NCBI GenBank assembly: GCA_008632985.1
Contig: QPGO01000049.1
Coordinates: forward strand, 124,001-188,000
Length of the DNA: 64,000 nucleotides
DNA from: Psammoneis japonica
Taxonomy: Eukaryota
Direction of reading: 5' to 3'
Made by a program: the position numbers and the translations under genes. The stretch's first letter is position 1. Every line of letters starts with the position of its first letter. The notes beneath the pieces were generated by a model. It ran no database searches and had not been told where the DNA came from. It saw only the letters and a program-made list of their open reading frames with translations. Below, in pieces: positions 26,428-52,553 of this stretch.

Positions 26428-29400
26428 CTACCTAGAGGCCATCCTTGATCCCCGACGGACTTGGGAGGTCGTTTTTGAAGACAGCCTTTTGGTACTGCCG
26501 TCGCGGCTGGACCTCTTCTTCCTACTAGAACTGCCTGACTTCTTCTTGGAAAGACTCTTCCTTCTAGAATCTTCGCGACTCAACTTTCGTCGGCAATCCT
26601 TCAGGACACCAGCCTTAATTCCTGGTCCAGTCTTTTTGACGAATTGTCTTGGAATAAAATCTGCGGGCTTTCCACCGCGAAACAGCTCATTCCCACTGTC
26701 ATCGGATGACACCCCAACGCGAGCTACGTCCGTGTGGGCATTGTTTGCGGGCTGCCCTTGATCAGAACTGTGCGCTCCATTGGGGGTCGTGGCTTCAGGT
26801 GCGCGGTCAAAGCCACCGGAGAAACTATCAGCAGCGTTGCGAATTTCCTCCAATTCCTCCGGGTCCATTGATTCAACATCACTGCTTGAGTCCGAAGCGC
26901 TTGGTCCTACTTCTTCCTCCCTGTCCGAATCGTCGTCGTCGTCTTCAGAAGCGCTTCCGCTTTCTCCTCGCTCCAAACGGCGGTGCGCACCTGCCAGTTC
27001 TGGCAACGATTCAGTTTGAATTGCAATTTCAGATGTCTCTGGAGTCACTTGCGACTCTTTAGTTTGCGTTTCCGCGTCGACGAGCTCTGCAGATTGCTCT
27101 CGCGCGCTGCTCCTTCCTTTCTGCGGGGTGATTTGTTCTGGTGCTTCTGAGTCAAAACTCGCTTCAGACCCACCCTCTGAAACGCGCCTGACTGGCGGAT
27201 CCATCGACAGCTGCAGCTTGGCTGCTTCACTGACAAAAGGAACAATGATCCTACTGGATGCAGGATGAGAAGTCGTGGATCGTTCGCCAAACTGCCAAAG
27301 CGGAACAGTAGCACCGTCGACCAGCAACTTGAGGTTATCAAGCTCTTCTCGAAGCTTCAATTCAGCTTCGTGCCTTTCCTTCATTAATCGTCTGTTTGTG
27401 TTCTGTAAATCTGCCAAATTCTCCTCGAGGTACGTAACATGCTGTTCTCGATTTGCCATCTTGTCATTGTACGTCTTGTTAATCAAGTGCAGCTCGTTCA
27501 TCTTCCAGATAATCGCCTGAAGGTCGTGTGTCTTCTTATCGAGTTGCTGGCGAAGCGTAATGGACTCCTGGGTCTCGCGCTTCTTGTTGTATCGACTCAA
27601 CGCTGCCTCCAGCTCTGCCTTCTTTGTCTCTAGCTCCTGCTGCAATTCAATGCATTTTTCACTCATTTGGAGAAAGTCACGCTCCAACTCCTTCTCCTTT
27701 GCTGCAAGAAGCCGTCCTCCAGGGGTATGAAGCTGCCTCTGGCGCTCTGCCGTGGATGCACCAGATAGGCTTCGCATTGAAGTCCGAATAGATTCGGTCG
27801 CATTTGCGTGATCTGAATGTTCCGGCGAGGAACCAGCTCCCGCATCGGCGCCACCGCCCACAGGTTCGTTCTCCCTTTCAGCCGACCCAGTCTCACTGAT
27901 GTTTTCTAGGTGGCTGTGTCCGTCTGAGGCGCTCGTTTCGCTGTGGACACTGCTGTTGAATGTCCTCACACTTCCATCTCTCTCTAGAGCGGAGGCATTT
28001 TTTGCAGCTTTCTTGGCCCCGGCCGTGCTTCGCAGCAACGCTGCTCCGCTTGGTCGATATGTACCAGCAGCGGTATCATCATGCATCTCCTCTTCTTCGA
28101 TAAGGCCACTCTCAACCAACAGAGTATCTACATCAATCAAGTCGTTCAAATCTGGTACACCGGGAGTCTTGGCTGTGATCTCCTGCGTACCTCCAGTTCC
28201 TTGAGCAGCCTTGTTTTTCAACAATCTACGATAGAACCTACGGAACTGTCGAAGGAATACAGTGGCCTCGTTCTCGCGAAATTGACTGGTACGAAGATTG
28301 TGTTCCACCTCAATCTTTCGCTGGGAAATGGTCTGAATCTCGTTCTTTGCGTCAATCAAATCTTGCACCACCTTTTTACTCTCTGCACTCAAGTTCTCAT
28401 TTTGAGTTCGCAGTACGGCGACTTCTGACTTGAGCTCCGAGATGGCATTTTCCTTGTCCGCGAACGGAGTTGAGTCGGTTCCAGCAGTATGCAAATCGCC
28501 GCTTTCGTAATCCGTCATCTCCTCTGTCCTGACCGTCTCGTTCGTACTTCCTTTCCGTACAATCACTACATAGTCTGACTCTTCCTCGTCATCGCTAAGA
28601 ATCTCGTGAATGCTCTCCCATAACGGACCGTCGTGGAGAGATTCATCGTAAGTGCCATTGGAAGCTTCTCTTTTCAAGTCACGGCATTCACTGGCGAGGG
28701 CCTTTACCAGCAAAATCAGATCCGCCTCTCTCTTTTCGGACCTCGAAAGTCGCTTCTTGTAGTAATCCGGTGTGAGTTGCGCATTTACAACCGCTGGATT
28801 CTTGATCTGCCTACAGCACTGGCCAAAACGAATCGCCGATATGGTTTCGCCAATGTTGTAGCTCGATGGCGACGCTGTCAAAATGACAGTGGTCATGCAG
28901 TTACCGCCAAAGCACTGTGCAAGCAATCGAGTCAACTTGTGTTTATCAACTGAAGAAGGCAATGCCATTTGCGATCCTTTCTGTCGCTTCATTTGCGCAC
29001 GAACAAAATTTGTCAGGGATGAGAGAGCCTTGTTAATCATCTTTGCCTCTTCCTGGACTGCGCTTGTCCCAAGAAAGTTTTGATTTTCCGTCTTGCCAGC
29101 CATTTCGCTGCCCGCGAGATCCACCAAATGTAAAACGCTCTTTTTGATTTCTCCCGTCACTGTGTTCTTTTGCTCCAGCCGAATAATGAAAATCGCATGC
29201 GATCGGCTCGAATCGGTGTTCATTTTGGTGCTGCTTACCGTTCGGCTCGCATTACCGCGATCCAAAAGAGCAAACACGTCATCCTTGTCTATACAACACA
29301 ATTCCGACGCCCCAACAATTCTGGCGTCCTCCCCCCGTTTCGGGGCTCCAGCCGCCTCATCCGAGGGGTCATTCGCAACGATACCTAGCACAGAACCACC

Positions 29401-30285
29401 ACCGCCTTCGCTCGCAGGATTTAAAAGGTCGAGAATCTTTTCCAGATAGATCTCTACATAAGAACAGCGGACTGTGTATTCCATTGACGGCGGCGAGTTC
29501 TCCAACAAGGCAAAAATAGCACTAATCGTTCTTGGGATCATTCCGAGATCTTGATCAGCCATTTTTCCACCTGTTCCAGAAGCTGGCCCATTTTCTGGAA
29601 GAGCACCTCTTGGAGGTACTTCTGGTGTGACCCTTTCATCACTATCTTCTTCATCCGTTCGAAGCCGTGACTTTTCCAGTGATCCAATGGTGCCTCCACC
29701 GGGGCCCATCATTGTGTGAGTCTTGCCAGAACCTGTTTGGCCGTACGCCATGACTGCACAATTGTATCCGTCAAAGAGCTGTCGCGCCACGGGAGCAGCA
29801 GTGTGCTCAAATACATCTGCCTGAGAAGCATCCTCATCAAATACCTTAATGAAGAACAAAGAAAGAGAGGTAGAAAGACAAAGGTTGAGAAGGATCAAGC
29901 TACGATGCTCACGAATTTTTCAAAAAAGGAGAGGGAGGAAAAATATCAATTTCAAAATTATGACGTCATGATGAGCAAACATTGTCCAATCAAAACTGTT
30001 CATCAGTCGACAAGCGAAGCGCCAAATGTCCATCACATAAGTATTAATTCGCATCGTACGAACACCTACCCGATCGAACCCAAAATCGTACTCCCCCTCT
30101 AGCGGTGAGTCCACGGTCACAATGTGCGGATCGTCATGAAACTCGACACAGTTCTTGCTTCGCCTGGAGGCTTCCAGCTTGTTCATGGGCCGAAGACGAA
30201 TACATACTCGAACGTTAGCGCTGTTGGAGTGATCCCAATCCTGTACGTCCAAGTCATCGCCGTAGCTCTCGTCATCAGACGCCAT
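26428..30285 (-). CDS. Kinesin heavy chain-like (kinesin-1-related) motor, paralog A; exons 30285-30070, 29844-26428
   Basis: VCIRLRP, FDR|VFDEDA, AYGQTGSGKTHTM, SYVEIYLE, SSRSHAIF and LVDLAGSE motifs, followed by a coiled-coil stalk. Confidence 0.9.
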
Positions 30286-32187: not shown

Positions 32188-34818
32188 CTATTCGTCGAGC
32201 TTACCGATCAGGCGGTCCAAGAAAAAACTCCCGTCCAGATTATCCGCAACAGGACCTTCCTGATTCCCTCCCCCAATGACGGGTAGTACAATTCGACTAG
32301 CTAGCGTCCGATCGTTGATTCTATTTTCGCCGAACTGCCATAAAGGGACAGTCATGCCGTCGACCAATGATCTCAAATTATCGAGTTCCTTCCGAAGTTT
32401 CTTCTCTGACTCCTGACTCGAAAGAAGAATAAGCCCGTTTACTTTCTGCAGATCTACCAACTTCTTCTCAAGAATAATGACTCGCTGTTCTCTGCTTGCC
32501 ATCTTGTTATTGAATGTCTCATTGATTACATGGAGCTCGTTCATCTTCCATACAACAGCCTGTAGGTCGTGATTCTTCCTTTCGAGTTGTTGCTGGAGCA
32601 TCATTGCTTCTTGTGCTAGGTCAACCTGGTCACTGCCACTCATCAATTTCTTCATTGACCCCCAGCCTTGTGATATCATTGTTGCAGACTCTTGTTGTTC
32701 CTTCAGGGCCATTTGCAACTCAAAACATTGCTCCGTAACCCTCAACAGCTCTTTCTGAAGCATTTTCACTTCCATGGCTTCAGAATCCATTTCATCATCA
32801 TCATTCGCGGCATCGTCAGCTTCGATATCTTCCATACTCTCCATATCTTCTTCGTCAATGACACCTTTTTCCAGAAGTAGCATATCAATGTCAATCATCC
32901 CTTTCATTTCCGGTACCCCAGGAACCATGGCAATGAGTTCTTCAATCTTGCCGCTCCCATGAACTCCTCTATGCTTCATTAACCGATTGAAGAACCTCCG
33001 AAACTGCCGCAAGAATATTCCTAGCTCCTTCTCACGAAAGTGATTCATACGAAGATCGTGCTCCAGCTCAGTTTTGCGTTGTGACACCACCTGGATTTCG
33101 TACTCGGCATCAATCAACTCTTGCATCGCTTTCTTGCTTTCCGCGCTGTAAAACTCATTTTTGCTTCGAAGGACAGCCACCTCAGATTGAAGTTCAGTTA
33201 CTGCATTTTCCGCTCTATCCCTGGCCTCATTGGCTTCCTCCACTTCCCTTTCCAGCCGGAGGATCTCCTTTCTGTCAGATTCCATCCTGTCATAAATATC
33301 TCCTTCTTCAACAAGATTTGGTTCCTTGGGGGGTTTGACGGAGTCTTCCTCCTCCTTGTCTGAATCCTCGTCATTTTCTCGTAGAGCTTCGTCAATGGCA
33401 AGCTTGACATGACTGTCTTCAAGAGGATCGGTCTCCGATTCACCCTTACATTCCGCGAGAAGAATCTTTACCAGTGCTTTTAGCTTTCGTTCCTTCTCTG
33501 CCCATTTTCTTTTCGACATTTTGTGCTTTTGCTGATATTTCTCGAGCTTTCTCTCGCATTCATCTGGATTGAACTCTTCATTAACGACAGGCAAATTCCT
33601 GATGCCCCTGCAGACCTTCCCAAAGCGCAACGTATCAACAGTGTCTCCAACATTGTAGCTCGATGGCGACGCTGTCAAAAGCACGGTCGTCAGACAATTT
33701 CCACCAAATGATGGATGGACCAGTCGAGTAAGCTTTGACTGATTCAGCGCTGCTTCCAGAACCTCTGTATCACCTGTCTTTTTTGCCTTGGCTCGTACCA
33801 TACTCGTCATGGCTGCGATGGATTTGTTATTCATCATTCCCTCCACAGACACGGACTGCTGGATTTGTTGCCCATCCGTGCTGGAGGAAGTCATGGATGC
33901 CGCCTCACTGCCCGCAAGATCCAGCATGTGCATTACGCTCTTCTTTCGTTCCCCGGTAATCCTGTTTCTCTGTTCAATCTTCATGATGAAAACAACGTGA
34001 GATCGACTCGAATCCGTGCTCATTTTGATACCGCTCGCGGTCCGAAAGGCATTGCCACGATTCAAGAGAGAAATGACATCGGCCTTGTCAATACAGCACA
34101 ATTCCGAAACACCAACAATCTGTGCTCCTTCTTCCGGCTTGGTCTTGTTTTCCACAATCCGTAGCGCCACGCCACCGACACCGCCGGGAGTCAAGAGATC
34201 CAACACTTTTTCTAGAAAAATCTCCACGTACGAACACCGAACCGTGTATTCGATATTGGGAGAGGACTCGTCCATCAAGTCAAACACTTCTCCCGCCACT
34301 CTTGGAATTACCCCTTCTGCGTCTTGAGGGTCCGGTGGTTCCATCTTATTATTATTGCCAGACTTTGGCGATTCAGCTGCAGCGCTGTCGTCAAAGCCCA
34401 GCATGGTATGAGACTTGCCGCTACCACTTTGACCATAGGCCATTATGGTGCAGTTGATGCCCTGGAGCAAGGAATCTACCATGGGTGCAATAGTTTTTTC
34501 AAACACCTCGACTTGTGTCGCGTCCTCATCAAAGACCTATAGACATTGCAACCCGCATGTATAAGCATGCGCGAACGCAATAATTACACATAATTTATCG
34601 ACTTGTGAACTTACTCGATCAAAACTGAAATCATATTCTCCTTCCAGAGGTGAATTGACTGTCAACGTGCGGGGGTCATCCTCGTGAAGCTCGATGCAGT
34701 TCTTGCTTCTCCTGGACGTTTCAAACTTGTTCATGGGACGGATACGAAGACAGACTTGAATACGCTTCCCTTCTTGTCCTTCTTGCTGTAGCTCGATGCT
34801 GTTTTCGTCCGACGACAT
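32188..34818 (-). CDS. Kinesin heavy chain-like motor, paralog B; exons 34818-34615, 34536-32188
   Basis: Same intron position (FDR|VFDEDA) as paralog A. AYGQSGSGKS, SSRSHVVF and DLAGSE motifs. Shares FLRQFRRF, HDLQAxxWKMNELH and VPLWQFGE with paralog A. Confidence 0.9.
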
Positions 34819-36100: not shown

Positions 36101-37323
36101 TCACTCGTACTCATCATCATATTCACCCTCGTCGTATATCTCCTCATCATATTCATCCTCTTCCTCATAACCCTCATCATCATACTCCTCTTGCTCTCGA
36201 CGACTCCGCGATGATTCGCCTCTTCTTGGTTGTTCTTGAAGACGAACTCCACCAGGAGGCGCGGACATTCGTCGTCTCGCCACAAAGGTTCCCACTTGCA
36301 CTCGCCTGGCACCCCGTCCAAACCGTTGTTTCCGCATTTCATAAATTTTCCCAACAATCTTGATGACATGACGATCCGCAATCTTTCTTCGAAAGTAGCC
36401 CTTGTACAGCATGAGAACGGGCTTTTCGTCCCTTGGTCCCTGAAAGGCTCGAGCTTGGAATTCAAGCGAGCAAGACTTGGGCCAAGACTTTTCTTTGAAC
36501 ATGTAGGGTGTGCGATAGACTTCATCTTCATACTTTGTAATGCAATCTCCGCGTGGCGTCAACTCAACATTGGCGGCACACGATGCAAAGGGACCGTCGG
36601 GTAACTTGCCGACTGGTTGGAGATGAGTGAAAGCAAAAATGTGAGCAAGACTCATGGTAATGACAATCGTTTTTGTTTTCTCAAAAAGACATTATTACCT
36701 TGCTGGTCCAATCGCCATACACCATAAACCTCATCCCGTTTCACATGTTTTGGAGAAACGAGATAGAATGCAGCTTTTCCGGATGTCTTTAGCGAAGTGA
36801 CGGCTGCCGATGTGGTGACATCGACCGTTTTCTTGGCGAGGCCAGCCGCAGTACCAAGTGCACCACCACTTCTTCTTTTAGAAGATGACGAGCGATACTG
36901 ACTGTTTCGCGGTGGTGGTCGTCTTCTTCTTTGGTAATCATCAGGACGACGATTTAGTGGCGGTGGCCGTCTTGCGCGAGACTCTTCTTCTTGTTCCTCT
37001 GAATAGTCTTCTTCGTAATCATCATACGAGTATTCATCATCATAGCCGCCGTCTAGAGGATTAAACTGCACAGCACCACCACGAACACCATCTATTCCAG
37101 TCTTTGTTGCTGTTGGATCGTACTCACACACTCCATTCACACATTCTAATGGTTGAGACTTCTTCTTTGTCGTTGATGGCTTTGTTGTTGTCACGGTACG
37201 ATTGTGGTTGGCAAAGACCGCAGCAAGGAAACATGAGTGGTGATGAAAATGTGAGGATCTAGCGGCAGTCACCTTTGTGATACAGGAAAGAATCACAGGC
37301 AGAACAACAAGAGGTTTTAACAT
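36101..37323 (-). CDS. Hypothetical signal-peptide protein; intron 36613-36698
   Basis: ORFs 36652..37323 and 36101..36655 join in frame through a GT-AG intron (LDQQ|VGK). Signal peptide and acidic Tyr-rich tracts. Confidence 0.7.
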
Positions 37324-37537
37324 TGTCTCTGTTGCTTTTTGATATGCGTTGCTGTGTTACTGATTTTACTGTACTGTAGTCTACTTTCCACTTTCCACTT
37401 TGTACTTGACACGTACCATGATGATGGGCGCGGCGGGGGACCCGGGCATGATTAAAACCCATAACCTTTTTAATTCCACGTGGCAAGAACAATTTAAAAG
37501 AGGGTTCATCATCACAAAAGAGAAACTCTTATAACGA

Positions 37538-37611
37538 GCTCGCTTAGCTCAGTTGGTTAGAGCACGTCATTAGTAATGACGAGGTCGCTGGTTCGAATCC
37601 GGCAGTGAGCT
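37538..37611 (+). tRNA. tRNA-Thr (anticodon AGT)
   Basis: Cloverleaf: GCTCGCT/AGTGAGC acceptor, GCTC/GAGC D-stem, CGTCA-TTAGTAA-TGACG anticodon arm, GCTGG-TTCGAAT-CCGGC T-arm. TTTT follows. Confidence 0.96.
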
Positions 37612-37692
37612 GTTTTGCTCGAATAGCAGCATGGCATGTGACTTTTGCTTTTTGGGCAGGACAGGTGATCAACAATGTGGCAACTGCTGGTG

Positions 37693-37993
37693 CGGATTGT
37701 GCATGGCCAGCTTCATCCCAGCACAAGAAAATTGTCATTTGTGCACATTGTGCACATGTCTGTCAACCTGGTGCTCAAACAATTGAGCTGTGAGGGCAAC
37801 ACTGCCACACCAGCTGAAACTCGTCCGCAGCTCTGCTCTTGGCACGGATTGTGTGTGGCCAGCTCCATCCCAGCACAAGAAAATTGTTGTTTGTGCACAT
37901 TTTGCACATGTCCATCAACCTGGTGCTCAAACAAGTGGACTGTGAGGGCAACACTGCCACACCAGCTGAAACTCATCCGCAGCTCTGCTCTTG
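37693..37993. repeat. Tandem direct repeat, 2 copies, period 152 bp
   Basis: 37693-37841 aligns with 37845-37993; several mismatches are CA versus TG or CG versus CA. Confidence 0.9.
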
Positions 37994-39699
37994 AGCGTGC
38001 GTGTGTGCTGGGACGGGGGCACACGCTTCATCTGCCAAGCTGGGGTTGCCTCTGTGTGCTGGTGCACTCCAAAGCATGTGTTTCCTTGCAGAATGGCATG
38101 TGGTTCTCTGATTCCCCACCTGACCTCACCATGGAGGTTGCACCCAGCAGCGCGTGTGATCAACCCCCAGCCAGTGCTGGGGTGTTTGCACACCCAATCC
38201 ATTGATTGTGGCATGGCAAGAGCCATTGTGGTTGGCAAACAACAGAGATGACATGCAAGCAGCATCACAACATCTCAGTCAGTGAAAACAAGTGGTGCCA
38301 CATCTGGGGCACCAGCAATCTGGGTCTGATCACCTGCCACACTTTGGGCATTCCTTGGCTGCAATCCCAGATTGTTGTGAACTCACAAGTTGATTCTTCC
38401 TTGCAATGTCAGATCAGAACCAACCAAATTTGCAAGAGCTCCTTGATTGCAAATTGCACCCCACTTTGAAGGACAAGTGTTCTTGCCCACAATTTTGACC
38501 TTTCAACCCTTTTCAATGTTTGCTGTTTCTCGATCCAGCATCTTTGCCTGCAGCAACATTGTTTTAAAAGCAAATGTTGCAACTGCCACTTGCTCTTGTC
38601 TGACAATCACCCTGCAGCTTGCCTCTTTGTTTTTGTGGCCATGTTTTCTGGATTTTGTTGTTTGCAGCAATTTGCATTCACACACCAGCTTGCTTTGTCA
38701 CCTTGGCTGCAACTGCTTTTGTGCCATTGCTGGCAGCCGCTGGCTGCAAGGGCAGCCCATTGGTGTGGCCTGCCCGTCCTCTCTCTGCTTCTTTTTCTCC
38801 TCTCTCTTGCATTTCTTCTTGGCCTCCTTGGACAAGTTCACCTTCTCTCTCCTTTGTTCCTTGAGCCATGCACCAAAAGAACCTTCACTCTTCTCTTGGT
38901 CTTTCTTTGCTCATTTGCACAGTTTGTTGTGCTTTGTGATCCCCTTCTTGCTCTTCTGCTGTCAGCTTTCTGTGCCTCGCAATGTCATCATCCAACCACC
39001 TTGTCACAGCAGTTGTGGTGTGCCAGCACCTCTGATGATGTGGCAAGTCACTCTTGGAGCAAATTGGTCATGCTTCTGCCAAACTGCCCTTGGGCTGCCA
39101 CAGTTGGTGCCACCATTTCCAAGAACCATGTGCATGTGTGGTCTTTGGTCATCAGCCCTGCCCTTGATCAAATCTTTGCAATCAGCCAGTGACCCCTCCA
39201 AAGCAGCAGCTGCACGGACAAAAGCAATGGAGTTCACACCCCATCCTGTTGGACAGTCCAAACCATGGCTGTCAAACACCTGTGTTGTGTTGCTTGCCTG
39301 TCATCCTCCTCCTTGCATTGTCCTGCATGTTGCTCCTTTTGCAGTTCAGTTTTTTCCTGAACACCTCTTTGTGTGCATTCCAGAATGCTTCCATCACCAA
39401 TGCCGTGCTCTTTGGCTCCTGCAGAACCATTTCATGCACTCTCCTTCCACTGCGAGTTCTTTGATGAAGGCCATGAACTTGCAACACAGCCACACACTTT
39501 CGTTGACAACCTCAGTCAACATGGACCTTGTCAAATTCTCATTGACCACTGGAGCTTGATCCGTTGCACCATGATGTCCCTCCACAGGGAGTCACAACAC
39601 AACTTGAGTCCCTCCTCACAAACTGGAGCTGGCTCAATTCCCTGTGCTCATTCATTTGCACATTGTGTTGAACAATCCCACTTTCACAGGGCTCATTGG

Positions 39700-40600
39700 G
39701 GCTGCAAAGCAAAGCAAATCAAAGTGGCTCAGCCCAACTTGCCAGTGCAACTGTTGATCTTTGTCCTGCCCTCTTCAACCCCTGACTTGCCACTTGACGT
39801 GGCACTCTCACCAACCTGCACTGTCACTCCTGTGACAACCATCTCCTCCATCTTCTTTCCTGCTCCAACAGGTGGCACTTGTGTTGCACTGTTTGCTGCA
39901 TCTCACCCAGTTTGTGACACAAGAAGTCACAAAATGAGTGCACTTTGCAAAACAGTGACTGCTGCTGGCTTGATGGATGCAGAATTCCATGCTGCTGGCA
40001 CCACTGTAAAGTTGGTTCCATGTGTCTCCATTCCATTCTTTGGGAGCTTGGGTTCTCTCAAGACTTGCCAGCCCTGTTGCATGTTGACAATGAATTGGCT
40101 GTCAAGATCATCAACAATTGCATCCTGACTCAACGCTCTTGCCACATTGACATCCAGTGGTTTGCTCCCCAGGACTGGAAGGATGCCAGCCACATTGTCA
40201 CATGACACATCCCTGGCATTGTCAACCCAAGCAATGACATCACCAAGGCTCTTGGGCAGGCTGATGCTCTGCGCCCACCACGCCCATCAGATGATGGGAC
40301 ACCTCCATTGATTTGTTGTTGCTGGCATCTGTTGAATTGCCCCACATCATTTTGTGATGTCTGGCTCCTTTCCAGAGTCATCCAGTTTGTTCTGTCCCTT
40401 TTGCATGAGACTGTCTTCCCTTTCTTCATGTTTTGTGATCTGCGTGGTCTTGTTTCTTGACATGTTAGATCAGGGGAGGGTGTCAGCCTGCTCTGCACAG
40501 GGCACATGGTCAGACTGTGCACAGATGATGGTCAGACTCTTTCAGATGGACAAGATGATCTCCTTGGCTTGTCACTCTTGCCCTCAAGTGCTTCAAATGT
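39700..40600 (+). mobile_element. Ty1/Copia LTR-retrotransposon relic: RNase H, polypurine tract, start of 3' LTR
   Basis: AEFHAA..KLV..LHSILWELGFSQ..LHVDN..QRSCHIDIQWFAPQDWKD..HIPGIVNPSNDITKALG (eroded Copia RNase H). AGGGGAGGG at 40472-40480 is directly followed by TGTCAG. Outer limits are approximate. Confidence 0.85.
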
Positions 40601-42249
40601 TTCATGAGTGCAGATTTGTCAAACCAGCCCCATCTTGGATTTGAAAATGAGAAGTTGCCCAACTGCAATTCAAAAGATCTTGATGGTGATGATGACACCC
40701 AGATTGTTGGTGCCCCAGATGCATTTTTTCATGGCACTGCAGCAGCCAGGTTGGCCTGCACAAAAAGCTGGCGCAAGTGTGCCCAGTCATTTCAGCCAGT
40801 TTGGCAAAAAAAAAACTGGTGCCAGCACCAGCATTCTGCACTCACAGCCAACCCCACCCCTGTGCAAGGGCTGCCATGGGATGCAGGTGGCTGTGGTGTG
40901 TGATGACATCATCACATGCATTGAGTTGCACACATTCACATCTGCACTTGTGAACACATGCCATCAAGCAAATGACTCCCATCCCACAGCACCCCAATTT
41001 TCTGAATGCCAAACACAGAGGGGGCAGGAGTTGACCATTTTTAAGCCATTCTCACACCACCCAAACAACACGCGTCACATCAGCTCCACCACCATGATGA
41101 CATCACCTCCATCATCCCCAACACCCACTGACAATGCCACAAATGTTGTTGTTGCCTCTGCCAAGCCCGTTGTGGAAGACAATTCTGTCACTCAATTTGT
41201 CGTGACCCAACCACAGATGCACTGCAATCTGGAAGGTGTCAATTTTTTCTCCTGCTGATCCAGCACCTGTCACACAATCTCAAGGCCGCAATTGGTCCAT
41301 CTGGTCATTGCATTGCCTGAACAAATTTCTTCCAAGTGTTTGCATGGGGAGGTCATGTTTGGTGATGATGGGCAGGGGCTTGAGTGTAGAAGCTTGCAAC
41401 TTTGCACTGCACAAAAGAAACAAAAGACAAAGTGTGAGGTCAAGGTTAAACTCACACCCTGCACCATGCTCTCTTTTCTCTGTGACCCCATTGTCAATGA
41501 GTCCATTTCTTTGGAGTCTTTCTTGCCCACTGACACACTCCCTCCCTTGTCAAGCAGGCCACACATCATTTTGATGTGAAGCAACAACCTTGACAGAAAC
41601 CAATTGATGAAAATGAAAAGAAGTCATGACAGGTGCGTTGCACAAAGACAAGCTAAAAAATGTGAAGAAGAAGTTGGCAAGGAAGGTGTGGCAGATGCAG
41701 AAAGCAGAGTGACAGAAGTGGAGGTTGTCATTGCAGTTGGCAAATGTCGAGTTGGCAAGATGTGCAAGGCAGCAGCAAATCCACTTGGATTCAACAATGT
41801 GTTTGAGGTGGGAAAGGAGAAAATGAGAAAGAAGAACCTGCCACTGACAAGATTGTGGGCTGGGGAACAAGAGGAATGGCCAAGACAATGTTTGAAGCTG
41901 CCATTGTTTCACAGCACGGAAGGACAAGAGGACAATGCACACCTTGTGATTGCATTTGATGTGTCAGATGCAACTCTAAACTGGCAGAATGCTCAACTCT
42001 AAACCATTCCACAAGGTGCTTTGTTGCTCAGTTTGCACAGGTTCCCAAAAAGCACTGTGATTTGTGGCAAAGTCTGTTGCACCTGGTGCAGCAAGAGCAA
42101 GGGACAACACAGCCACAGGTGCATCTGAGTTGCCCTTGGAAATCTTGCAAACAAGAACATCCGTGGCAATGAGAGCCACAGCCATTTGCTTTGCTGCCTT
42201 TGGTTTGACCTTTGCCACATTGCTGCTAAAAAGCAAAGCAGGAGCTCTC

Positions 42250-43330
42250 AGAAAGGATTTGATGGCATCAACAACCATGTCAACTAAGTGAGCATTCTGG
42301 ATGAGGCAATCACCATGCATGAAAAGGTCAAACAAAATGGAAGCAACACCATTGCAATTCAAAGCTGGGTGCAGCAGGAGGTGGTTGCAGTGGCAATGGG
42401 TGCAAGCATTGCATGGCAGCAGGCTGGAAGGGTCGATGCTTTCAGCAAAGGCAGGGCTGGAAAGCAGAACCTTGAAGGATGCTTGGTGACAGCAAGTCAG
42501 GAATGAGAGAAGGCATGGAACTTGCATCAAATCTGTCATTTCAAATTCCCTCACTTCAGGAGAAATGTTGGTCGCTGCAGTGCACCGGACATGCAAATGA
42601 ACAAATGCACATGTGTTTCCAGCAAAACACACATTTGCCAGAAGCAGCTTGGAAAGGGAACTCCCTGGCCCATGCCAATCAAGCCAGGTGGACCGGTTTC
42701 CCTGAAATGTCTCAATTTTTGTCTCCTCCTGTTGGAGTGAACAATGCATTTGAAAGAAGAACCATTGGCCATTGGCAATGCCAACAGCTGGTTTGAAACC
42801 ATTGTAAAAGGAAGGTTGCTGCAGGTGACATGGAATGACACATGCCTGTGCCTCTTGTCAAATGGCAATGGCCAACATTGTGGGGGAATCTTGAACCCAA
42901 TCAAAGCCATTCATTGATGAAACAATCTGGGCAGTGCAAGTTGTGGTCATGAGCAGGAAGGGCAGCAAAACAATGAATTTTGTCAAGAGCAACAAGCCGC
43001 AGCAAACCCTGGTGTGCAAAAGAGAGAAGAAATTGCAGTGGCTCATCAATTGGAAACAGCCAACTGAGGGGAAGAAAACATGTGCCGCACCCTGTCAAAA
43101 AAAACATTCCATGTGAGGATTGTGATGTTTTGATGTCTCATCCAAATGAAATGAGGTGACTGGGCCATGTTGTTGTTGTCATGTGGCTTGTTGTGACACA
43201 TTGTTTTGCGGCACTGATTGGAACCCAGGGACAAAAGTGGGATGACCGCAAGGATTGTGCCATGGTGGCAGACACTGACAATGTCTTGGACAAGGGATTT
43301 GCCACCTTCTGTGGGTCTGACTGGTGACTG
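42250..43330 (-). pseudogene. Degenerate RecQ-like SF2 helicase
   Basis: Motif I VRPTEGGKSL, Ia AVIPLLSLGSNQ, II LRLVALDKIH (DExH), III LLMTTTCT, and a downstream Cys cluster CCHQ..PCNACTHC, in correct order with frameshifts and deletions. Confidence 0.7.
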
Positions 43331-45610
43331 TGGCTGGGCTTGTTGGTTTTTCATTCATGAAAACAGTTTGGAGCCAACCTCAACCTTCCAACTGCAAGGT
43401 TGCTTGCCAAAGACACTGACAGAGATGTCAATGAATGTTTGGGAGAATGGTGTGGGCAGCTTTGTGCAGGTTGGGTGTGTGGAAGCATCTGTGTCAGGTG
43501 CTGCAGCTGATGAAAAAAGTGCAAGTTGTTGCCGTGCAGCAGCACTGCCAACAATGCACACTCAACAGTGGCAAAACTCACATTGGGGCAACAGGCATTG
43601 CATCATGGGAAGGCGTTGATGATGCATTGCTCAACATCATCATGGTGGACTGTTGTTGACACATGTTTTTTGTGTGTCATGTGGCAGGTGAAAAACGGTC
43701 AACTCCCACCCTCTGTGTTTGCCATCCAGGGAATTGGAGGAGAGCATGGATCAGGATTTCCCTTGGTGCCATGAGCACTTGTGTGCAAATGCCAAATTTC
43801 GTTAAATGACAGCATGTAAAAAATGCATCACATCTCAATTGCATCACCATGCCATCACATCCACACTCTTCCCTTGCACAGGGGTGAGCCAGCCTCTTTG
43901 CACAAACAAATGTGGTTTTTGTGCTGCACCGTCTGGGCTCCACAAAGTGCCGCACATCTTTCAATCCACCATGTGGCACTTTGTGCCAGTGACACCTGCA
44001 GTTGTCACCATCATTCTCAAAAAGAAAATGCAAGGGGCCAAACCTTTTGCAAAGGTGGCAACATGAAGCAATGACAGGGATGAGCTGCAAGGCTTGCCCA
44101 AGCAAGCCAGATTTGTCAGCTGAGGAACTGCTGCTTGCAAAGAAGTTGAGGAAAATCAACAACATTGTTGGCAGTTGGCCCAGCTGGCACTGTCAAAAAT
44201 GACAACAGAGAGAGGGAGGACAAGGCTGTGGTCAGAGATCTGGGAAATGCAGAGGGTCGTCTCTCAAAGCATGTGATTTGTTTGCAAAAGCAAGTTGGTG
44301 GTGCGGAGGGCAAATGACCCAGGTGTTTCCTTTTTCTTCTTCTTCTTCTTCAAATCACCCCAACCACAGTGTGGCCACTGCTTTTCACCAAGGTGTTTTA
44401 CAGAACAGGAGTGTTTTGCAGATTCTGCCCATCTGGATTGAAAGCAGGTTCAAGGGCCCTGCCCAATGCACAAGATTGGTTCAGCATGGCTGCTGGAGCT
44501 CTGCTGCTTGTGCTCAAACCTTTTGCTCTTGGCATCTGCACCTTTTGTGATTGCAGCTGTCTACCCCCATTGGGTTGGTCATCCAACCAGGAATTTGCCC
44601 TCCTGTCTTGATGCCCACATCCAAAAGAACTGAGTTGGGGCTGGTTTGCCTTGAGCATTGGCTTGGCTGGCACAAAAGACACAACTCAAAGCTTCAGCAT
44701 CTCCTGCCTTTGGCTTCTCACTCAAGTTGATCAATGCAAGGTTTTGAGCAATGACTTGGAATGTGGACAGAGTGTGTGTTGAGTGGCAAAAGAGATGACA
44801 CCCAGCCACTGTTTTGAGTGCATTCTGAGGCAATCCAGTTGCTCCCATCAGCAGCACTGTTGCAAAAGAAAGTGCCCACACCTCCTTCTTTGTTTCTGTG
44901 CTTGAGACTGCAATTCCTGGAGTCTTGAGAAAGGGTTAGATTAAGACTCCACATTTTGTGCCCTCCTCTGAGAATGTCCAATTGTTCTCCATGTCACACC
45001 CATCAGGCATGTGACTCAGGAGAGAGCGCAAACTGACCAAATGGCAACTCAGGTGCCAGTGTGTCAACCAGTTGTCAGGAACCTTGTGGTGCATTCTTCT
45101 GAAATGCTGGACTTGAGCCATGTCTTCAGCCAATGTTGAGCAGATGATGCCACAAGGCTTGCAATGGAGCACAACATAAAAACAAAGCTGGTGCTGCAAT
45201 TTTGCACTGGACAAACAAAAAGAACACAGGGACACCAGCACCCAGGATGGCAACATTGCACAGATCATTGGCCAGATCATCCTTGTGTGAACCATTGCAA
45301 CCACAACTGCCACATCCCACATGAAGTCAGGGAGTGCAGCAAATGACTCACACCTGATGAGGTGGAGGTGGGTGGACAGTGTGACAAGCTGCTGGTGCTT
45401 GGTCATGTGAATCTCCCACCAAGATGTGGCATGAGGCGAATCTGTGTGAGACCCATGTGCAGTGCTGGGAGTTTTCCTCATGCATGAGACCAGCACCAGT
45501 TGTCTGCTGCATGCACAGTCAGTTGTTGAGCACTGGGGTGGTGCTCCACCAAATTAAATGTTGACCTGGCCTCTGGCCTTGTTTGACATGTGTGATGTCA
45601 GGTTGCTGAC

Positions 45611-45783
45611 ACCGCCCCTTGACCTCTGTCTCTTTCTCAGCTGCTCTGCAGATCTTTGATGCCATCTGAGATTCTGGACACATTGTGCTGCACTCTCTGG
45701 GCACATTTCCTCAGCTGCTCTGCAGGTCTTTGTTGCCCATCTGAGATTCCAAGCACATTGTGCTGCCCTCTCTGGGCACATTT
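45611..45783 (-). repeat. ~74-bp tandem repeat (45636-45783) next to a possible second PPT/LTR junction
   Basis: Two copies of CTCAGCTGCTCTGCAG..CTCTGGGCACATTT. The minus strand reads AAGGGGCGG-TGTCAG at 45620-45606, like the junction at 40472. The LTR interpretation is tentative. Confidence 0.55.
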
Positions 45784-48700
45784 CCAGAGTGTGAGCCTTC
45801 TGAATGTCCCATTGGAGTTTTTGGGTGGTGCCACCAAGTGCAAGAATGTCCCACTTTCTTGGACTGGAAATGGAGGATTCAAGAAGAGTCAATCAAGAAG
45901 AGTGCACTTTGTCCTCATTGAGCTCAGCGTCCAAGCCAAACACAGAGTGGCAACACTGATGCCTCTTTGTGGGTGGGTGGTTGGAGGAGTTGGAGCGGCA
46001 CCAACTGGAAAATGTGCAAAGAGAGTCATTCACACAGGCTCTCTGCTCTGAGACATCAGACAGACATTTGGCTCTGCATGACCTCTGTGCATGGCTGGTT
46101 TTTGGTGGTTGAATCTGATGCTTTCTCTTTGGTGCTGGAGTTTCAAAGAGTTTTGTTTGATGGAGCCCACCCTGTCTCACTGCAGATTGTTTGGCCCTCT
46201 TGGTGGGGGGTTGGGCAGCAGGTGACAGGAGCCACCTGCATTGTTTGGCACAGTGCCCTCCCCCCATTTCTTTCAAAAAGCAAGTGATGTGATGGCAAAG
46301 GCTCTTTCATGTTTCTTTTCCTCGGTGGCATTCCATCCATTGGCAGGTGGAGACAACCAGTCAATCAACTGGAGGATCAAGACACTGTCTCTCACAGAAA
46401 AACAGAAAAATTGAGTGTGCCAGTTGACAGGCACTGCATCTCTCTCATCTTCTTCCATGTTCTTGTGAAGGACCAGCAGGATTTGTGCAGAACTTCTGTT
46501 TCTCTTTTCTCACCACTGCACTGTGATGCAGCAGGGCATGGCACAGATCTCTCCCTCTTTACCCCAAAGTCTTTCATGCTTGTTGTGGACAATGCTCTTT
46601 TCAGTGGCTGCCACCTGCAACATTTGTGACTGACTCCTGGGTGGATTGCAGCAAAATGTCCAACAAGGGTCAGTGGTGCATGCCCCAGCAGAGCCACACT
46701 GTGGTGTGAAATGGATGCACTCCCCTTTGCTTGTTTGGAGCTGAGTTTGCAGAAATCTCTGGGCTGTGATGATGGGGAGCTTCCAGCACTTGCAAAATTT
46801 TGGCATTCAGGTTGCTGCTGATGTTGTCTCACTTCACTTTTGGGTGGTGCTGGGTGGTGCCCATCACCCCACCACTGCCACCAAGATGTGGGCACAGGTG
46901 TGGCTCATGCCAACTCTTCTGGCATCCTCTCCAGGGTGCACTCCACCAACCCTGCTGTGTGGGACAATGCCCTTGAGGTTTGGCAGACCTTTGCATCCAT
47001 GCCAGTGAAGGGCTTGACTGCAAACTTGTTTCTCAGACCAAATGGACAAAGGCAAAGCTTGCTCTCAACTGGGCCACAGAGTGTTCTTCATGACAAATGA
47101 CAAACATTTGTCTCTTGTTGAGTTCAGGTCCTGCACTGGCTTCATTTGCTGTGCAGCTCTCTGACTCATGATCACTTGCCACTGCAACATGTGACAAGAG
47201 GCTTTTGTGCAAAGCAGGCAACTGATGGGCCATCAAGTGGCAAAGTGATGCCCAAAAACCAGCGGCATGCTCTGCACTGCTGCTGCTTGACCAGCTGCAG
47301 TTGTGGTGGTTGGACACAGATTTTTGCATGGCTTCTCCAGCATGTTGTTGGGCTCCAGGGGGGGGGGGGGGCAACACATGTGATGCTCCTTTGTGATGAC
47401 CCAAAACTTCTGTTCAAGGTGTCTCACCTGCATTGGCTGCACATGCACTGGAAGAGATGGCTGCAGCATGGCTGCTGAAGTGGCACACTGACATCCTTCA
47501 AGGTGTTCTCTCCTTGATCCCAAGGCTGTTGACACCCTTGTGGTTTTGACATTTTGTTCAGTTGGCCAACATTTGTTTTTGCATTGCCCAATTTTGTGCA
47601 GGTGTGTGCTTCTGAGTTGGTGTGCATTTCCCTCTGTTGCACCACAAGCCCTGGGAGTGGAGACAAGCTCCACTTCAGTGGTGCTGTTTTTGCACAAATG
47701 TGTCAAAGTGCACAAAGCCTGGCTGGTGCACATTGGGGGTGAGAACTTTTGTGACAAATGCAGCAGTTTCCTGAGGAAGAAAGTCCAAATGATGGGAGAG
47801 ACATGGCGTGTGGGGTGGCATGGAAAACTTGACACATCACATTGCTGTGAACAAGCAAGCAGCAGTTTGGAGCACTGTTTTGTTGTTTGTGTGGGAGCAA
47901 CTTTGCATGGATGGCTTGCACATTGTGCAAAGAATGTGCAAGTCTCCTTGCTTTGTGCAATTGCAGGATCCACTCACAGCAGCAGTTTGGACCCATTGCT
48001 TTAAATTCAAAGATCACTTTCAGCACACCAAAGAAAGCTCCTCCAGCTCAATCTGTTTTTGCAGGCACAACAGCTCAGTGTGAGTGCAACAAATTTCAAT
48101 GAATTTTTTTTTGCAGGCACCTGCATGAAATTCAGCAAGCCATTGGATTGGTTGTGCGCTGTTCTGGGAGACTTGTGGATGCTCTTTGGCATTGTGTGGC
48201 TCAGCCAGGTTTTCTTTCTGAGGTGCTGCTGCATGGCTGCAGGGTGCTGAGGTCCTGGAGTGGGCTGTCAGCTGGGTCAATCACATTGGGGCACAGGTGG
48301 CATGGAACTTGTGGTTCTTGTGGGTCCCATGAGCAGTGTCTGCTCCAAATGCTTGCAAATGCTGTGTGTGTGTTCTTGAGGTTGTTGTCTGCACTGCAAT
48401 TGTGGGCAGGGTCCTGCTTGGGCAATTTGGGCTTGCAGCTGGTGTTGAGCAGGAAGAGTGGGGTGCACACCACTGGAATTGGGGTTGCTGCCAGCTTGGT
48501 TGGATGTCAGCAGATCTGATCCATTGGGGAAAAAAGCAGGTGCTGTGATTGATGTCAGTGTAGACTTTGCAAGGGCACCGTGACCTGGGGCTGGAGCATT
48601 GACCCCCCCCCCCCTTGATTGTGCCCAGGTGTGTCCAGTGCAAGTTTTTTTGCCATTGTGTTGGCATGAGTGGTGGAGGCTTGTGATCTGAAGTCATTGT

Positions 48701-50769
48701 GTGGCATGCATCTGGCCTCCACTTCAATCACAGATGTGCTTCTGATCATTTTAATGCGCCAGTGCAGTGGAGCCCAAAAGGGGCCCTGGCCACCCCTTTG
48801 CAAGTGGAAAACATGGTTTTGATGTCATGCTGATGCAATGTTCATGTCATGATTTTTTGTGTGTTGTCACATCTCTTAATTTTGCATTTGCACACAAATG
48901 CCAATGAGGATGGGAGTTTTACTTAACAACATGCTGTGCACACACATTTGCAAGAATGTGAATGTGTCCGACTCAATGGATGTGATGATGTCATCACCCA
49001 CACCCACCCACATCCCACAGGACCACTTGCAAAGGGGTGGGCCCTGGCATTCTTGCTGGCAACCAAGAAGTTTCCAGCTTGGGTTGAAGTGTCAGTGTGC
49101 ACACTCAAATGTTTGGTGCTGGGGCCCCAGGTTTGCAGAACAAACAACAAGGCAAAGAGCCATTGTTTGCACCTCAAGGATTGCCAGGAACTGAGTTGAA
49201 TGTCTTGGCAATGTGTCGTTGCTCAGCAATCATCACCAAGGGCTCATGACTTGGCTGCAAATCAACTTGTTTTCTTTGACTGGAGATGTTTTTGCTCCTT
49301 TTTTTGCCAAATGCTAGCCAAGCACACACTCTTGCCTCTCTTGCACTTTGCAGCACTTTGTTTTGAGAGATCAAGAGGGGGTCATTTGGAAACTGCAATT
49401 TCAGGGTTTGAGCTGTTGCTGAGATTTCCTCAACAACATTTGCAACATTTGTTGGGGGGAGGGGTGACAGGGGGTTGAACCAAAAGTTGTGGTTTTTGCA
49501 ATTGCCATGACTTTTGTTCGTGTGAAACATTTGCATGCAGCACTTCTCTTGATTTTGCTGTGATGCGCCATCTCATCAAAAATTGAATCTTCAAAGCTCC
49601 ACAAAGACCCTCTGCAAATTCAAAAGCCTTTGTTTGCAGCTGACTTCTTTTCTGCTGACACCCGCCCACCCTGTTGAAGAAACAAGGGCATCACAACACC
49701 CAGTTGCTTGCAGCACTTTGACCCCTTCCTGCTGACAGCTCCCAAAAGTTTGCCCAACAATGCAGAAGCCCTGTGGACTTGCACTGGTTCCTGCTCTCAA
49801 AGTCTGTCTGTTTGGAGCACAGGTTTTTTGTGCCATTCTTGTCCCAGCACATCTCACAAACTGCAGGCTTTTGCACGTGATTTCATGTGTGGAACTCATG
49901 CCATGGAAACAAGGTCAAATCTTGCACAACAAGCCAGCGGCATTTTTGGATTTGTTGCGTGCACAATGTGCCAGATTCTTGCATGCAGACACAGCAATGT
50001 GGAAGGCTGGTGGACAAACAAACACACTGGGAACCACCATGAAATTCCACACAATTGGGCAGCCTTTTGAGAGCCACAAGCTTTGGCTCACACCTCTTGG
50101 CACACTGGGCAACTCCTCTGCTCTTTTTGTTGCTGCTGCTGTGTGGGCAGGACCAACAGGAACTTGTGACCACAGGTTGCTTGCCAAGCAGGCCTGGCTT
50201 CCAGCTGCTCAAAGTGCAAAATCCTGACTTTGATGCACCAACACAACTGAGTCAAAAAGAGGCTCCAGCACACCAGCACTGGTGGTGGCCAAATTTCTGG
50301 TCTGGATTTGTTGTCTGACACAGGGGAGGCACTGCACCCACTGCCACATGTTGCAGAGAGTTGTTGCCAGCATGTGCTCAAAATGTTCAGAAACTCCTGA
50401 GATTCAGAAGTGAGGTAAAAAGCCAGAGGTGCACACAGGTGGATGGTGCTCAAATTGGACACAACTGTTGCACATTTGCAGGCCATTGACACTCCAGCTG
50501 CTCAAAAAAACATCTGGGCTCAACAAGTTGTTCAAAGTCAACTCTGCATCATTCACCAACAAAGTGCAAAGTGCAGCTTGTCTTCAGATGAAATCATCAC
50601 ATGTTTGATGTGTTCTTGAATGTGCTCAATGTGACAATTGCAGCACCATGGTGCTGCACTCTTGGCTCAGTCAAACTCAGCACCAGGCTGCTCATCATGA
50701 GTGTTGGCAAAAGGTCATTGTGACAAGAGATGCTGACCTTGATGAGACAATGCAGTCAAATCCAAGAAA

Positions 50770-51335
50770 ATGGCCCAGCATTGTTGGTGGCAGAGTTTCT
50801 GGCTTGGGTTCATTGGCTGGTGACAGGAGTCCATGCTGCCACATTCAGTGGAAAAAGTGTCAGCAGTGTGTGCTTTTGCATGTTCAGCAGTCTCCAAGAT
50901 TTGTGAAAGTGAGACAAGCAAAGACAGTGTCAGACAGTCTCTGAGATTTGTGAAAGTGAGATGAAGACAGCACCAGACACATGTGCACACAGACAGAAGG
51001 TGTGATGGTGCTCAAATTGGCTGCAATGGCCATTGCACCTTTGCCATGTTTGACATTCATGACTGACAAAATCTGCATTCAGTGGATTGTTCAAAATCAC
51101 TTTCAAGTCATGTGCCAACTCAGCACAACACATGTTGCAGAAGCTGTCTCCGGGCACAAAATCACTGACACAGCAAAGTTGAGAGAGATCCCAGCTTTGT
51201 GATGCAACAACATGGTCAAGTCTAAAAGGGGCCCCATCATCATTGGTGGCAAAGAATCTGGCTTGGGTTTGTTGGCTGGCTGGAGGCCACACCACCACAT
51301 TCAGCGGGGAAATGTCAGTGTGTGTTTTTGTGCTC
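50770..51335. repeat. Diverged direct repeat of ~110 bp (~50770-50880 and ~51228-51335)
   Basis: Shared TTGGTGGCA..TCTGGCTTGGGTT..TTGGCTGG..CCACATTCAG..TGTCAG, with reciprocal CA/TG differences. Confidence 0.65.
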
Positions 51336-51933
51336 TTGGCACTCAGTTTCTGAGATTTGCTTGTGTGGGCATCACACATGATCCACAACCATCATCAGTG
51401 TGCTTCATGATGTCTCACTTGCAGACACAGTTAGATGTTTTGCACAACTCATCTGGGTTTTTATAAAAATGGGTGAGCTCACACCAAAATGAACCTCTGC
51501 TCATTAGAGCGCATCCTCGAAACATTGCAAGGAAGGGGCCATTTGCGCGCCACTCCTTGACAAGAAGGTGACTCATTGAAGGCAATTTTTTGAAATCAAA
51601 TGTCACACTTTTGTGGAGCCAATGCACTTGTTGTGGGCCCCGCACTTTGATCTGGGGGCTCCGGAAAATCTTGGAAAATTTTGTTGTGCGCACGACACAG
51701 TGGCTGAAAAATTGTTGGGACAGAGCTGCAAAGTGTGTGAGAGAGATGGCGCTGCACATGAGACATGCTCTTTGGTTGGCTTCATGAGTTGGCCATTGTT
51801 TGGCATTGGGCACTGAAGTGGATTTGCTGTTTCTCCTCTTTTGCTGTCTGTCTGGCTCTCAGCCAGCAGCACTGTGCTTCTCTTTTGCACCAGAAGATCT
51901 TCAACCCTGTTTTTGCCAGGCTTTTGATTCTCC

Positions 51934-51935
<2 letters not shown>

Positions 51936-51966
<31 letters not shown>

Positions 51967-52130
51967 NNNNNNNNNNNNNNNNNNNNNNNNNNNNNNNNNN
52001 NNNNNNNNNNNNNNNNNNNNNNNNNNNNNNNNNNNNNNNNNNNNNNNNNNNNNNNNNNNNNNNNNNNNNNNNNNNNNNNNNNNNNNNNNNNNNNNNNNNN
52101 NNNNNNNNNNNNNNNNNNNNNNGGGGGGGG
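51936..52130. other. (GT)n microsatellite, 156-N assembly gap and poly-G
   Basis: GT repeat 51936-51966, N 51967-52122, G run from 52123. Confidence 0.95.
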
Positions 52131-52553
52131 TTCAGCAGAGAGGGTCATTCCTGCATGGATGGCAGATCACTCTCACAGTGTGAGTGCTTTTCAAAAGTTA
52201 GACCTGCCAGAATTGTTTCAGCAATCTTGGATTTGTGGGAGTGAGCGAAATGAAGAGCAGCCAGACGTGCACACAGACATCTGTTTATGTCCCTGGTTGA
52301 AATCGGAAACTACAACCGTTACACGTTTGTTGATTGTTGACACAGCATGACCGCAGAAATCTGCATTCAACGCATTTATTCAAAATCAATTTGAAATTGT
52401 ACCAGTATATATATATATATATACGTCGTATGACGATGAAACCGTTACACGTTTGTCGTGTTGTTGAAGCTCATCTCAGCAAATTCAACTCCAATCGTCG
52501 CATCGGTTCTAGATAGTCATTTATACATTATAAATCAATTAATATGAATATTG

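Follow-up and report, generated by a model that had tools for sequence, protein, structure and literature searches.

A Ty1/copia RNase H relic in a TA- and CG-depleted island of a diatom-like genome, probably swept by two context-specific transition processes

The 64,000-nucleotide window of contig QPGO01000049.1 (assembly GCA_008632985.1, Psammoneis japonica) analysed here, to whose own numbering all positions below refer, contains discrete blocks from which the dinucleotides TA and CG have nearly disappeared, and the longest of these blocks holds the C-terminal RNase H tail of a Ty1/copia polyprotein (39949-40311, + strand). In these regions TA and CG have changed to CA and TG, by transitions only, symmetrically with respect to the two DNA strands and with a sharp regional targeting. 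We consider it probable, at roughly 0.68, that the tail is the 3' end of pol from a Ty1/copia retrotransposon now dead, either 5'-truncated or decayed past recognition, and, jointly with this identification, that the relic lies amid transposon debris, in an island of a diatom-like nuclear genome which was swept by two context-specific transition processes.

Results

Identity of the element

The relatives of the tail were found with phmmer, using as query the 70 amino acids translated from 40053-40262, with the TGA codon entered as X, against 1.84 billion representative proteins: 342 proteins matched at E ≤ 1e-3, of which 43 reached E ≤ 1e-10; the best match has E = 5.7e-17 and 59% identity. 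A word-indexed protein search with the RNase H tail returned no match, and the index-free phmmer search alone recovered relatives. When eleven long matches were run through Pfam, ten possessed RVT_2 together with the retroviral integrase SH3 domain, and eight of these ten gag_pre-integrs in addition; the eleventh (P0003) is an unrelated repeat protein. The domains of the related polyproteins follow the order gag_pre-integrase, integrase SH3, RVT_2 and C-terminal RNase H, and in all ten Pfam-confirmed Copia polyproteins the window tail aligns at the extreme C-terminus. The relatives share 41-60% protein identity and about 62% DNA identity with the tail, and one of them, from a named diatom, is P0027 of Nitzschia inconspicua (49% identity over 77 amino acids).

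A profile of the C-terminal ~355 residues of 15 long relatives matches 40008-40259 in frame 0 with 93 bits (E = 2.7e-30). This piece (+ strand; KVGSMCLHSILWELGF...HVDN...RSCHIDIQWF...NPSNDITKALGQ), which is found by the profile, by phmmer and by tblastn of the long relatives, is the RNase H tail proper. On both sides of it, weak collinear profile matches lie in the neighbouring frame. The upstream one covers 39949-40020 (profile positions 231-254), within which the Copia pol RNase H part is placed at 39949-40005 (+ strand, frame 1, KTVTAAGLMDAEFHAAGTT; profile positions 231-249, ..SSTEAEF.AAV..). The downstream one, 40264-40311 (+ strand, frame 1 again, MLCAHHAHQMMGHLH; profile positions 334-349), is collinear with the ..VLHeRHARRLMGHYg end of the relatives and has a TGA where these end; three Arg columns of this last piece read His, His and Gln. 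Because the profile match continues collinearly in the other frame on both sides, the window copy carries two frameshifts, at ~40006 and ~40260, and a TGA stands in frame at 40203-40205. A preliminary description of this DNA, made from its letters without database searches, had named a Copia RNase H at this place, and the E-values of both phmmer and the profile bear this out.

Composition and borders of the depleted blocks

Per-kb observed/expected (O/E) ratios of dinucleotides across the 64-kb window set three blocks apart. Block B (37640-52300) is the 14.6-kb TA/CG-poor island that holds the Copia tail as well as diverged repeat pieces in both orientations; over 14,311 bp of it (37650-51960) we counted 34 TA, 81 CG, 1618 CA and 1766 TG, compared with 1707 TA, 2410 CG, 3231 CA and 3304 TG in the 44,502 bp of the rest of the window. 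Block A (8480-10290) has 1 TA and 19 CG in 1,781 bp and no recognisable protein domain, and block C (61500-64000), which reaches the window end and likewise has no recognisable domain, 13 TA and 22 CG in 2,481 bp. The overall block level is a TA O/E of ~0.03 and a CG O/E of ~0.1; per kb, block interiors range over 0.00-0.10 for TA and 0.00-0.21 for CG, with higher values in edge windows. CA and TG reach O/E 1.7-2.2 in the blocks, and the flanks have TA at ~0.5 and CG at ~0.95. The 301 bases from 39960 to 40260 contain 1 TA and 1 CG next to 37 CA and 37 TG, which is far from chance.

The pyrimidine-purine fraction is 0.245 in block B versus 0.239 in the flanks, and the G+C content 0.487 versus 0.476; that both are unchanged is the expectation for pure transitions inside TA and CG. 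The block borders are sharp to about 100 bp, as can be seen at an intact-looking tRNA-Thr(AGT) gene (37537-37612, + strand), which lies ~30 bp outside the left border of block B and before which the mutated state ends. The TA/CG-poor regions are thus confined to discrete blocks, within which a foreign origin is seen for the Copia tail alone.

Direction of change in protein and DNA

The three in-frame pieces of the window copy (~120 codons) were aligned to the 15 long relatives, and a column was called conserved if at least 12 of the 15 have the same residue. The window differs at 18 of the 50 conserved columns. Transitions alone suffice to reach the window residue at 15 of these 18, and 13 are a single step from a codon for the consensus residue, either CG to TG or CA (10 columns: CG>TG 4, CG>CA 6) or TA to TG or CA (3 columns); control rules that start from GC/AT, from CA/TG or from homodinucleotides account for 4-5 of the 18. 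With a looser cut (at least 8 of 15) there are 79 columns, 31 of them changed; the CG and TA steps explain 18 of these (CG 12, TA 6), the controls 5-6. Conserved Arg and Tyr columns are changed in 6 of 7 cases, versus 12 of 43 for all others (Fisher p 0.006).

For the DNA, unmutated short relatives were aligned and the alignment was used to scan metagenomes, which yielded 80 loci. The 58 loci with a tail open in frame were codon-aligned to the window, and a dinucleotide was taken as ancestral at no less than 60% agreement at both positions. The window reads TG at five, CA at five and something else at two of the 14 ancestral CG sites and has kept CG at two, while the six ancestral TA sites read TG (2), CA (2) or something else (2), with none kept. 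Across the 12 classes of dinucleotides other than pyrimidine-purine, CA or TG stands at 21 of 196 sites. By Fisher's test the excess is significant for TA (p 0.002) and CG (p 8e-7) separately as well as together (p 1.3e-8), and because both outcomes, CA and TG, occur for both TA and CG, there is no strand bias. Adjacent double changes are seen as well: CA>TG at 5 of 27 ancestral CA and TG>CA at 2 of 18 ancestral TG, with examples at 40257, 40270 and 40200 (Trp TGG > Gln CAG, His CAC > Cys TGC). Such double changes fit a process of long duration, with TA and CG arising anew by ordinary transitions and being resolved again either way.

These results support, in protein and in DNA, what the preliminary description had claimed, namely that TA and CG were once present in this RNase H and that both gave way to CA or TG, with either outcome for each. 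The strings it quoted are all present on the + strand of 39960-40260. It had read seven codons in this sense, of which four were right, one had been taken in the wrong frame and two are ambiguous. The His of L-CAT-SIL stands for an Arg found in 15 of the 15 long relatives, the Cys of RS-TGC-HIDI for an Arg in 14 of 15, and the Asn of NPS-AAT-D, behind AGC, for an Asp in 14 of 15; the His of L-CAT-VDN occupies a column with Tyr in 8, Phe in 4 and His in 1 of the 15, and with Tyr 76, Phe 13, Cys 12 and His 11 among the 123 of 149 relatives that have a residue there. CGA>TGA in IVT-TGA-HIPG is possible but ambiguous, in a column of His 5, Arg 3, Lys 2 and Glu 2, and so is a Tyr origin of AEF-CAT (Ile 4, Leu 4, Tyr 3, Val 3).

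The change of CTA-TAT to CCA-TGT, suggested for KLV-CCA-TGT, follows frame 1 beyond the frameshift at ~40006. In the homologous frame the site reads S-M-TGT-L: the change of Tyr (12 of 15) to Cys (TGT, 40023) is real, the one from Leu to Pro is not, and the residue before the Tyr is Lys or Arg in the relatives, not Leu. Two reading frames had been mixed, as AEF-CAT-AA lies in frame 1 and L-CAT-SIL and all that follows in frame 0; the scope of some 300 bases was also too narrow, as the phenomenon extends over 14.6 kb and two other blocks. The closest intact relatives do not already have His, Cys or Pro at the positions in question, and judging from their sequences those relatives that do have Cys or His there look like mutated copies themselves.

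Loss of TA apart from loss of CG

The 80 metagenome loci have a median TA O/E of 0.68 and a median CG O/E of 0.76, but a few are TA-poor: L077 with a TA O/E of 0.12, L018 with 0.24 and L005 with 0.40. TA-poor loci were polarised against the agreement of sister copies at 85-92% DNA identity. L077 has changed 30 of 37 ancestral TA (11 to CA, 19 to TG) versus 2 of 44 ancestral CG (p 3e-13), and its five sisters 0-2 of 25-27 TA and 4-7 of 42-43 CG each. For L059 the changes amount to 12/33 TA and 10/48 CG, for L018 to 14/29 and 6/42, and for L005 to 9/27 and 6/37. These metagenome copies, from microbial mats and other sources (L077, L018, L059, L005), are caught midway through TpA loss. Among 149 relatives, seven have lost at least three conserved Arg with Tyr kept, three have lost Tyr with Arg kept, and two have lost Tyr with Arg mixed. 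Since L077 changed so many of its TA and so few of its CG, the TA process is separable from CpG decay, and the copies compared here indicate that in this Copia family TpA>CpA/TpG hypermutation and CpG decay each occur without the other. The window blocks carry both losses, near completion.

The few TA that survive in the blocks (8500-10280, 37650-51960 and 61520-64000) are not distributed at random: 42 of 48 follow a T or precede an A, in contrast to 638 of 1706 in the flanks (p 2e-12), and the contexts TTAA (13), TTAG (11) and CTAA (8) dominate, which the flanks of CA and TG do not predict. In L077, L059, L018 and L005, TTAA, TTAG and CTAA kept their TA at 20 of 26 sites versus 50 of 130 elsewhere, counts in which sites are shared between copies and not independent. 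A plain rule exempting every TTA or TAA context reached only marginal significance in the metagenome copies (p 0.054) and was rejected. Surviving CG are enriched in GCGC (21 of 122, versus 4.5% in the flanks).

Mutation in place

Inside block B lies a tandem duplication of ~153 bp (37688-37993, + strand), whose copies differ at 14 sites. Twelve of these differences are transitions, and eight of the twelve form four adjacent CA<>TG swaps, as expected when ancestral TA or CG was resolved independently in each copy. Other diverged repeat pairs of block B show 1, 2, 2, 1 and 6 such swaps, and a paralogous contig of the public run X1 has CA where the window has TG (39833-4), with 8 of 8 listed differences being transitions. 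For this Copia family, run X1 includes 75 contigs at 90-95% likeness. The whole island is alike in composition, including the repeat pieces of both orientations, and so are the two blocks without a retroelement signal. The swaps between copies, the uniformity of the island and the strand symmetry favour an action on double-stranded genomic DNA over the editing of an RNA or complementary DNA (cDNA) intermediate.

Remainder of the element, repeats and surroundings

Upstream of the tail, reverse transcriptase (RT), integrase and gag of the same copy were not found by Pfam, profile or tblastn: profile positions 1-230 have no match there, and tblastn of 16 long proteins matched only 39796-40274, besides one unrelated region. 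Pfam gave no transposon domain, and chance-level matches only, in 111 open reading frames (ORFs) of block B, whose minus strand was covered as ORFs of at least 75 amino acids; none was seen either in the three read-through frames of 35.5-40.3 kb or in 51 stop-to-stop ORFs of blocks A and C. A pair of long terminal repeats (LTRs) was not found by exact-seed, purine/pyrimidine 36-mer or blastn self-comparison, which returned short diverged repeat pieces only; the transition-tolerant purine/pyrimidine 36-mer search for LTRs and long repeats recovered only the tandem duplication. With nothing recognisable of RT, integrase and gag upstream, the Copia copy is a fragment, or else decayed beyond recognition.

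About 160 bp past the pol stop, at 40468-40490, the purine tract AGGGGAGGG is followed by TGTCAG. By its sequence this arrangement resembles a polypurine tract leading into a 3' LTR; no matching 5' LTR was found. Diverged repeat pieces at 40853-41099, 43635-43886 and 48791-49041, all inside block B, have 73-83% identity in direct and inverted orientation and coincide with a higher depth of the run X1 contigs (up to ~530 versus ~67). These pieces probably derive from LTRs or solo LTRs of a multi-copy family. At 51940-52122, close to where block B ends on the right, a (TG)n microsatellite runs into a gap of 156 N (51967-52122). Unlike the other blocks, block A has a G+C content of 56.5% and is strongly enriched in purines on the + strand (GC skew 0.39, AT skew 0.24); long open frames occur on either strand.

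The flanks of the blocks consist of ordinary intron-poor eukaryotic genes, among them kinases, EF-G, kinesins, a subtilase and SRP19, and the top named relatives of EF-G are all diatoms (88-92% identity). The kinesin-motor genes at 26428-29751 and 32188-34482 (- strand) are diverged tandem paralogues with 62-67% DNA identity over several segments, and an aminotransferase gene sits between them. In the gene to the left of the island, a contig of run X2 skips 86 bases (36612-36699) with CT..AC ends, that is, a GT..AG intron on the minus strand. Run X2 has no contig on block B, which says nothing on expression.

Discussion

Proposed mechanism

The mechanism that we propose comprises two changes, CpG to TpG/CpA and TpA to TpG/CpA, which would act on both DNA strands and resolve each TA or CG site at random to CA or TG. 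In codons, Tyr would become His or Cys, and Arg would become Cys, His, Gln or a stop, with the purine/pyrimidine pattern and the G+C content kept. The loss of CpG may be due to deamination of methylated cytosine in silenced transposons. The loss of TpA, in turn, may be due to a targeted A>G hypermutation, probably by an adenine deaminase, the inosine being read as G. The putative function would be a defence that inactivates invading DNA.

Comparison with known systems

To our knowledge, a mutational defence that attacks TpA was unknown before a single 2026 preprint on one rhizarian alga. According to its available text, two integrated viral regions mutate ~1000-fold faster in mutation-accumulation lines of Bigelowiella natans, almost only by A>G/T>C changes, all on TpA, which becomes TpG or CpA; the authors suggest a defence by an adenine deaminase, with an ADAT2-like candidate, and describe clusters and coding sequences with little TpA and much CpA+TpG, in which reverse transcriptase and DDE domains are over-represented (bioRxiv 10.64898/2026.01.13.699255). 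The likeness to the window lies in TpA>TpG/CpA transitions on either strand, in the restriction to discrete foreign or silent regions, and in a footprint poor in TpA and rich in CpA+TpG. However, B. natans is a chlorarachniophyte (Rhizaria) with giant-virus and virophage inserts, whereas we are dealing with a diatom-like genome, a Copia relic and unidentified debris. In B. natans TpA is about halved (3.3% versus 6.0%) and the available text reports no CpG effect, whereas here TA is down to an O/E of ~0.03 and CpG is erased too; and the de novo mutations of B. natans were seen in lines, whereas here an end-state footprint is read from sequence only. A process confined to TpA does not describe the blocks, in which the CG O/E is ~0.1 and 10 of the 14 ancestral CG sites read TG or CA. 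As far as the footprint tells, what would be new relative to B. natans is the diatom, the retrotransposon as target, the added CpG loss and the completion to which the process was carried.

In ascomycetes, repeat-induced point mutation (RIP) turns CpA into TpA, which enriches TpA and lowers G+C. The likeness of the blocks to RIP lies in the outcome: context-specific transitions pervade repeated or foreign DNA, and islands of distinct composition with sharp limits remain. RIP makes TpA and lowers G+C, however, whereas TpA is nearly absent here and G+C is unchanged; fungal RIP is therefore rejected as the process at work in the window. Deamination of 5-methylcytosine leads to CpG decay in silenced transposons of vertebrates and plants, and basidiomycetes show a RIP-like decay targeted at TCG. 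Methylation-dependent CpG decay resembles the pattern of the blocks in changing CG to TG or CA on both strands, and in transposon DNA only, but it leaves TpA alone, which here is lost as well. The CpG depletion of the blocks (O/E ~0.1) is also deeper than the usual vertebrate level.

For diatoms themselves, PMC2806351, a paper on the CoDi groups of diatom Ty1/copia elements, states that a Phaeodactylum Copia element carries CpG methylation; a term search of this paper found no mention of dinucleotide decay. With these elements the window copy has in common the Copia lineage shared with Nitzschia inconspicua P0027, but it is without recognisable gag, integrase, RT and LTRs. Searches of the literature turned up no account of TA-plus-CG erasure or of TpA hypermutation in diatoms; PMC2806351 and PMC4504042 were covered by term searches.

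Alternative explanations

A single activity of dual specificity, directed at repeats or heterochromatin, might have erased TA and CG together, for instance a deaminase acting on the C of CpG and the A of TpA. All three blocks lose TA and CG together, to a similar depth and with the same sharp borders, which is what such an activity would produce, and the Results of the B. natans preprint cite ADAT2-type enzymes of amphioxus and Trypanosoma that act on A and C (bioRxiv 10.64898/2026.01.13.699255). We nevertheless regard one common activity as unlikely, because the two losses are separate in relatives (30/37 TA versus 2/44 CG in L077), because seven relatives lost Arg codons with Tyr kept and three the reverse, and because Bigelowiella, in the available text, shows TpA changes only. 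A good deal less likely still is that the RNA or cDNA of the element was hyper-edited before integration, by ADAR-like A>I and APOBEC-like C>U changes, and that the edited copy was then inserted. Retroelements do pass through RNA and single-stranded cDNA, and ADAR prefers a U before the edited A, according to the Discussion of the same preprint (bioRxiv 10.64898/2026.01.13.699255). Yet the outcomes are symmetric between the strands, the entire 14.6-kb island is alike, with its repeats in both orientations and its non-coding parts, two further blocks without retroelement signal share the pattern, and the tandem copies have diverged by CA<>TG swaps.

It is highly improbable that nothing mutated in place and that the family by nature avoids TA and CG, for example to evade a host nuclease or silencing. 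The 80 metagenome loci are indeed somewhat low in both dinucleotides (medians 0.68 and 0.76), but the long relatives have normal proportions of Tyr (3.0-3.8%) and Arg (5.7-7.3%), a TA-free protein could hold no Tyr codon at all, and the window copy has two frameshifts, a stop and replacements of invariant residues. We give just as little credence to an artefact of the assembly, namely a systematic miscalling of modified bases (5-methylcytosine in CpG, modified T or A in TpA). Strand-specific miscalls would yield a random resolution to CA or TG, and no record states by which technology the assembly and run X1 were sequenced. Against this, Logan contigs of run X1 (k-mer depth ~60-68) show the same bases, differing from the window at 0-1 positions per contig over 36.5-43.8 kb, although this run may be the assembly's own sample and is not independent. 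A base-calling artefact is also unlikely because the same signature is present in metagenome contigs of unrelated projects and because the protein-level changes match the real decay of a frameshifted pseudogene.

Several points count against two transition processes acting on transposon debris as we propose it. The 'ancestral' states are family majorities drawn from distant relatives rather than the true parent, and the codon sample of the window is small, with ~120 codons and 3-6 TA events. Five of the 18 changed conserved columns fall outside the rule (E>D, V>G, T>A, L>I and H>C), of which H>C is itself a CA>TG swap. The enzyme, the CpG methylation of the blocks and any ongoing mutation in them are putative. 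Bigelowiella has no CpG effect reported in the available text, its targets are integrated giant-virus and virophage DNA, and its TpA is only about halved, not erased. Finally, apart from the Copia tail the blocks have no recognisable origin, so that the label 'transposon debris' derives solely from the repeat pieces and the extra read depth.

Implications

A more far-reaching reading is that diatoms have an active, region-targeted TpA to TpG/CpA hypermutation on both strands, of the kind lately described in a chlorarachniophyte, but directed against retrotransposons and, together with the erasure of CpG, carried through to the end, with CA and TG shuffled via short-lived TA and CG intermediates, and with TTAA and CTAA/TTAG spared. 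We hold this reading only tentatively and put it slightly short of even odds. If it is true, TpA editing would be an old and widespread genome defence of the SAR (stramenopile-alveolate-rhizarian) lineages. Since the end-state footprint occurs in a diatom-like genome and on a retrotransposon, and is half-finished in metagenome Copia copies, our results suggest that the TpA process is neither a quirk of one species nor restricted to viral inserts.

TA and CG near zero, CA and TG doubled and an intact purine/pyrimidine pattern may serve as a compositional marker for silenced invaders in algal genomes, and they carry a warning, as such relics escape domain searches. The partly mutated copies, set against their unmutated sisters, and the spared TTAA and CTAA/TTAG contexts offer material for finding the enzyme, for working out its context rules and for dating the process.

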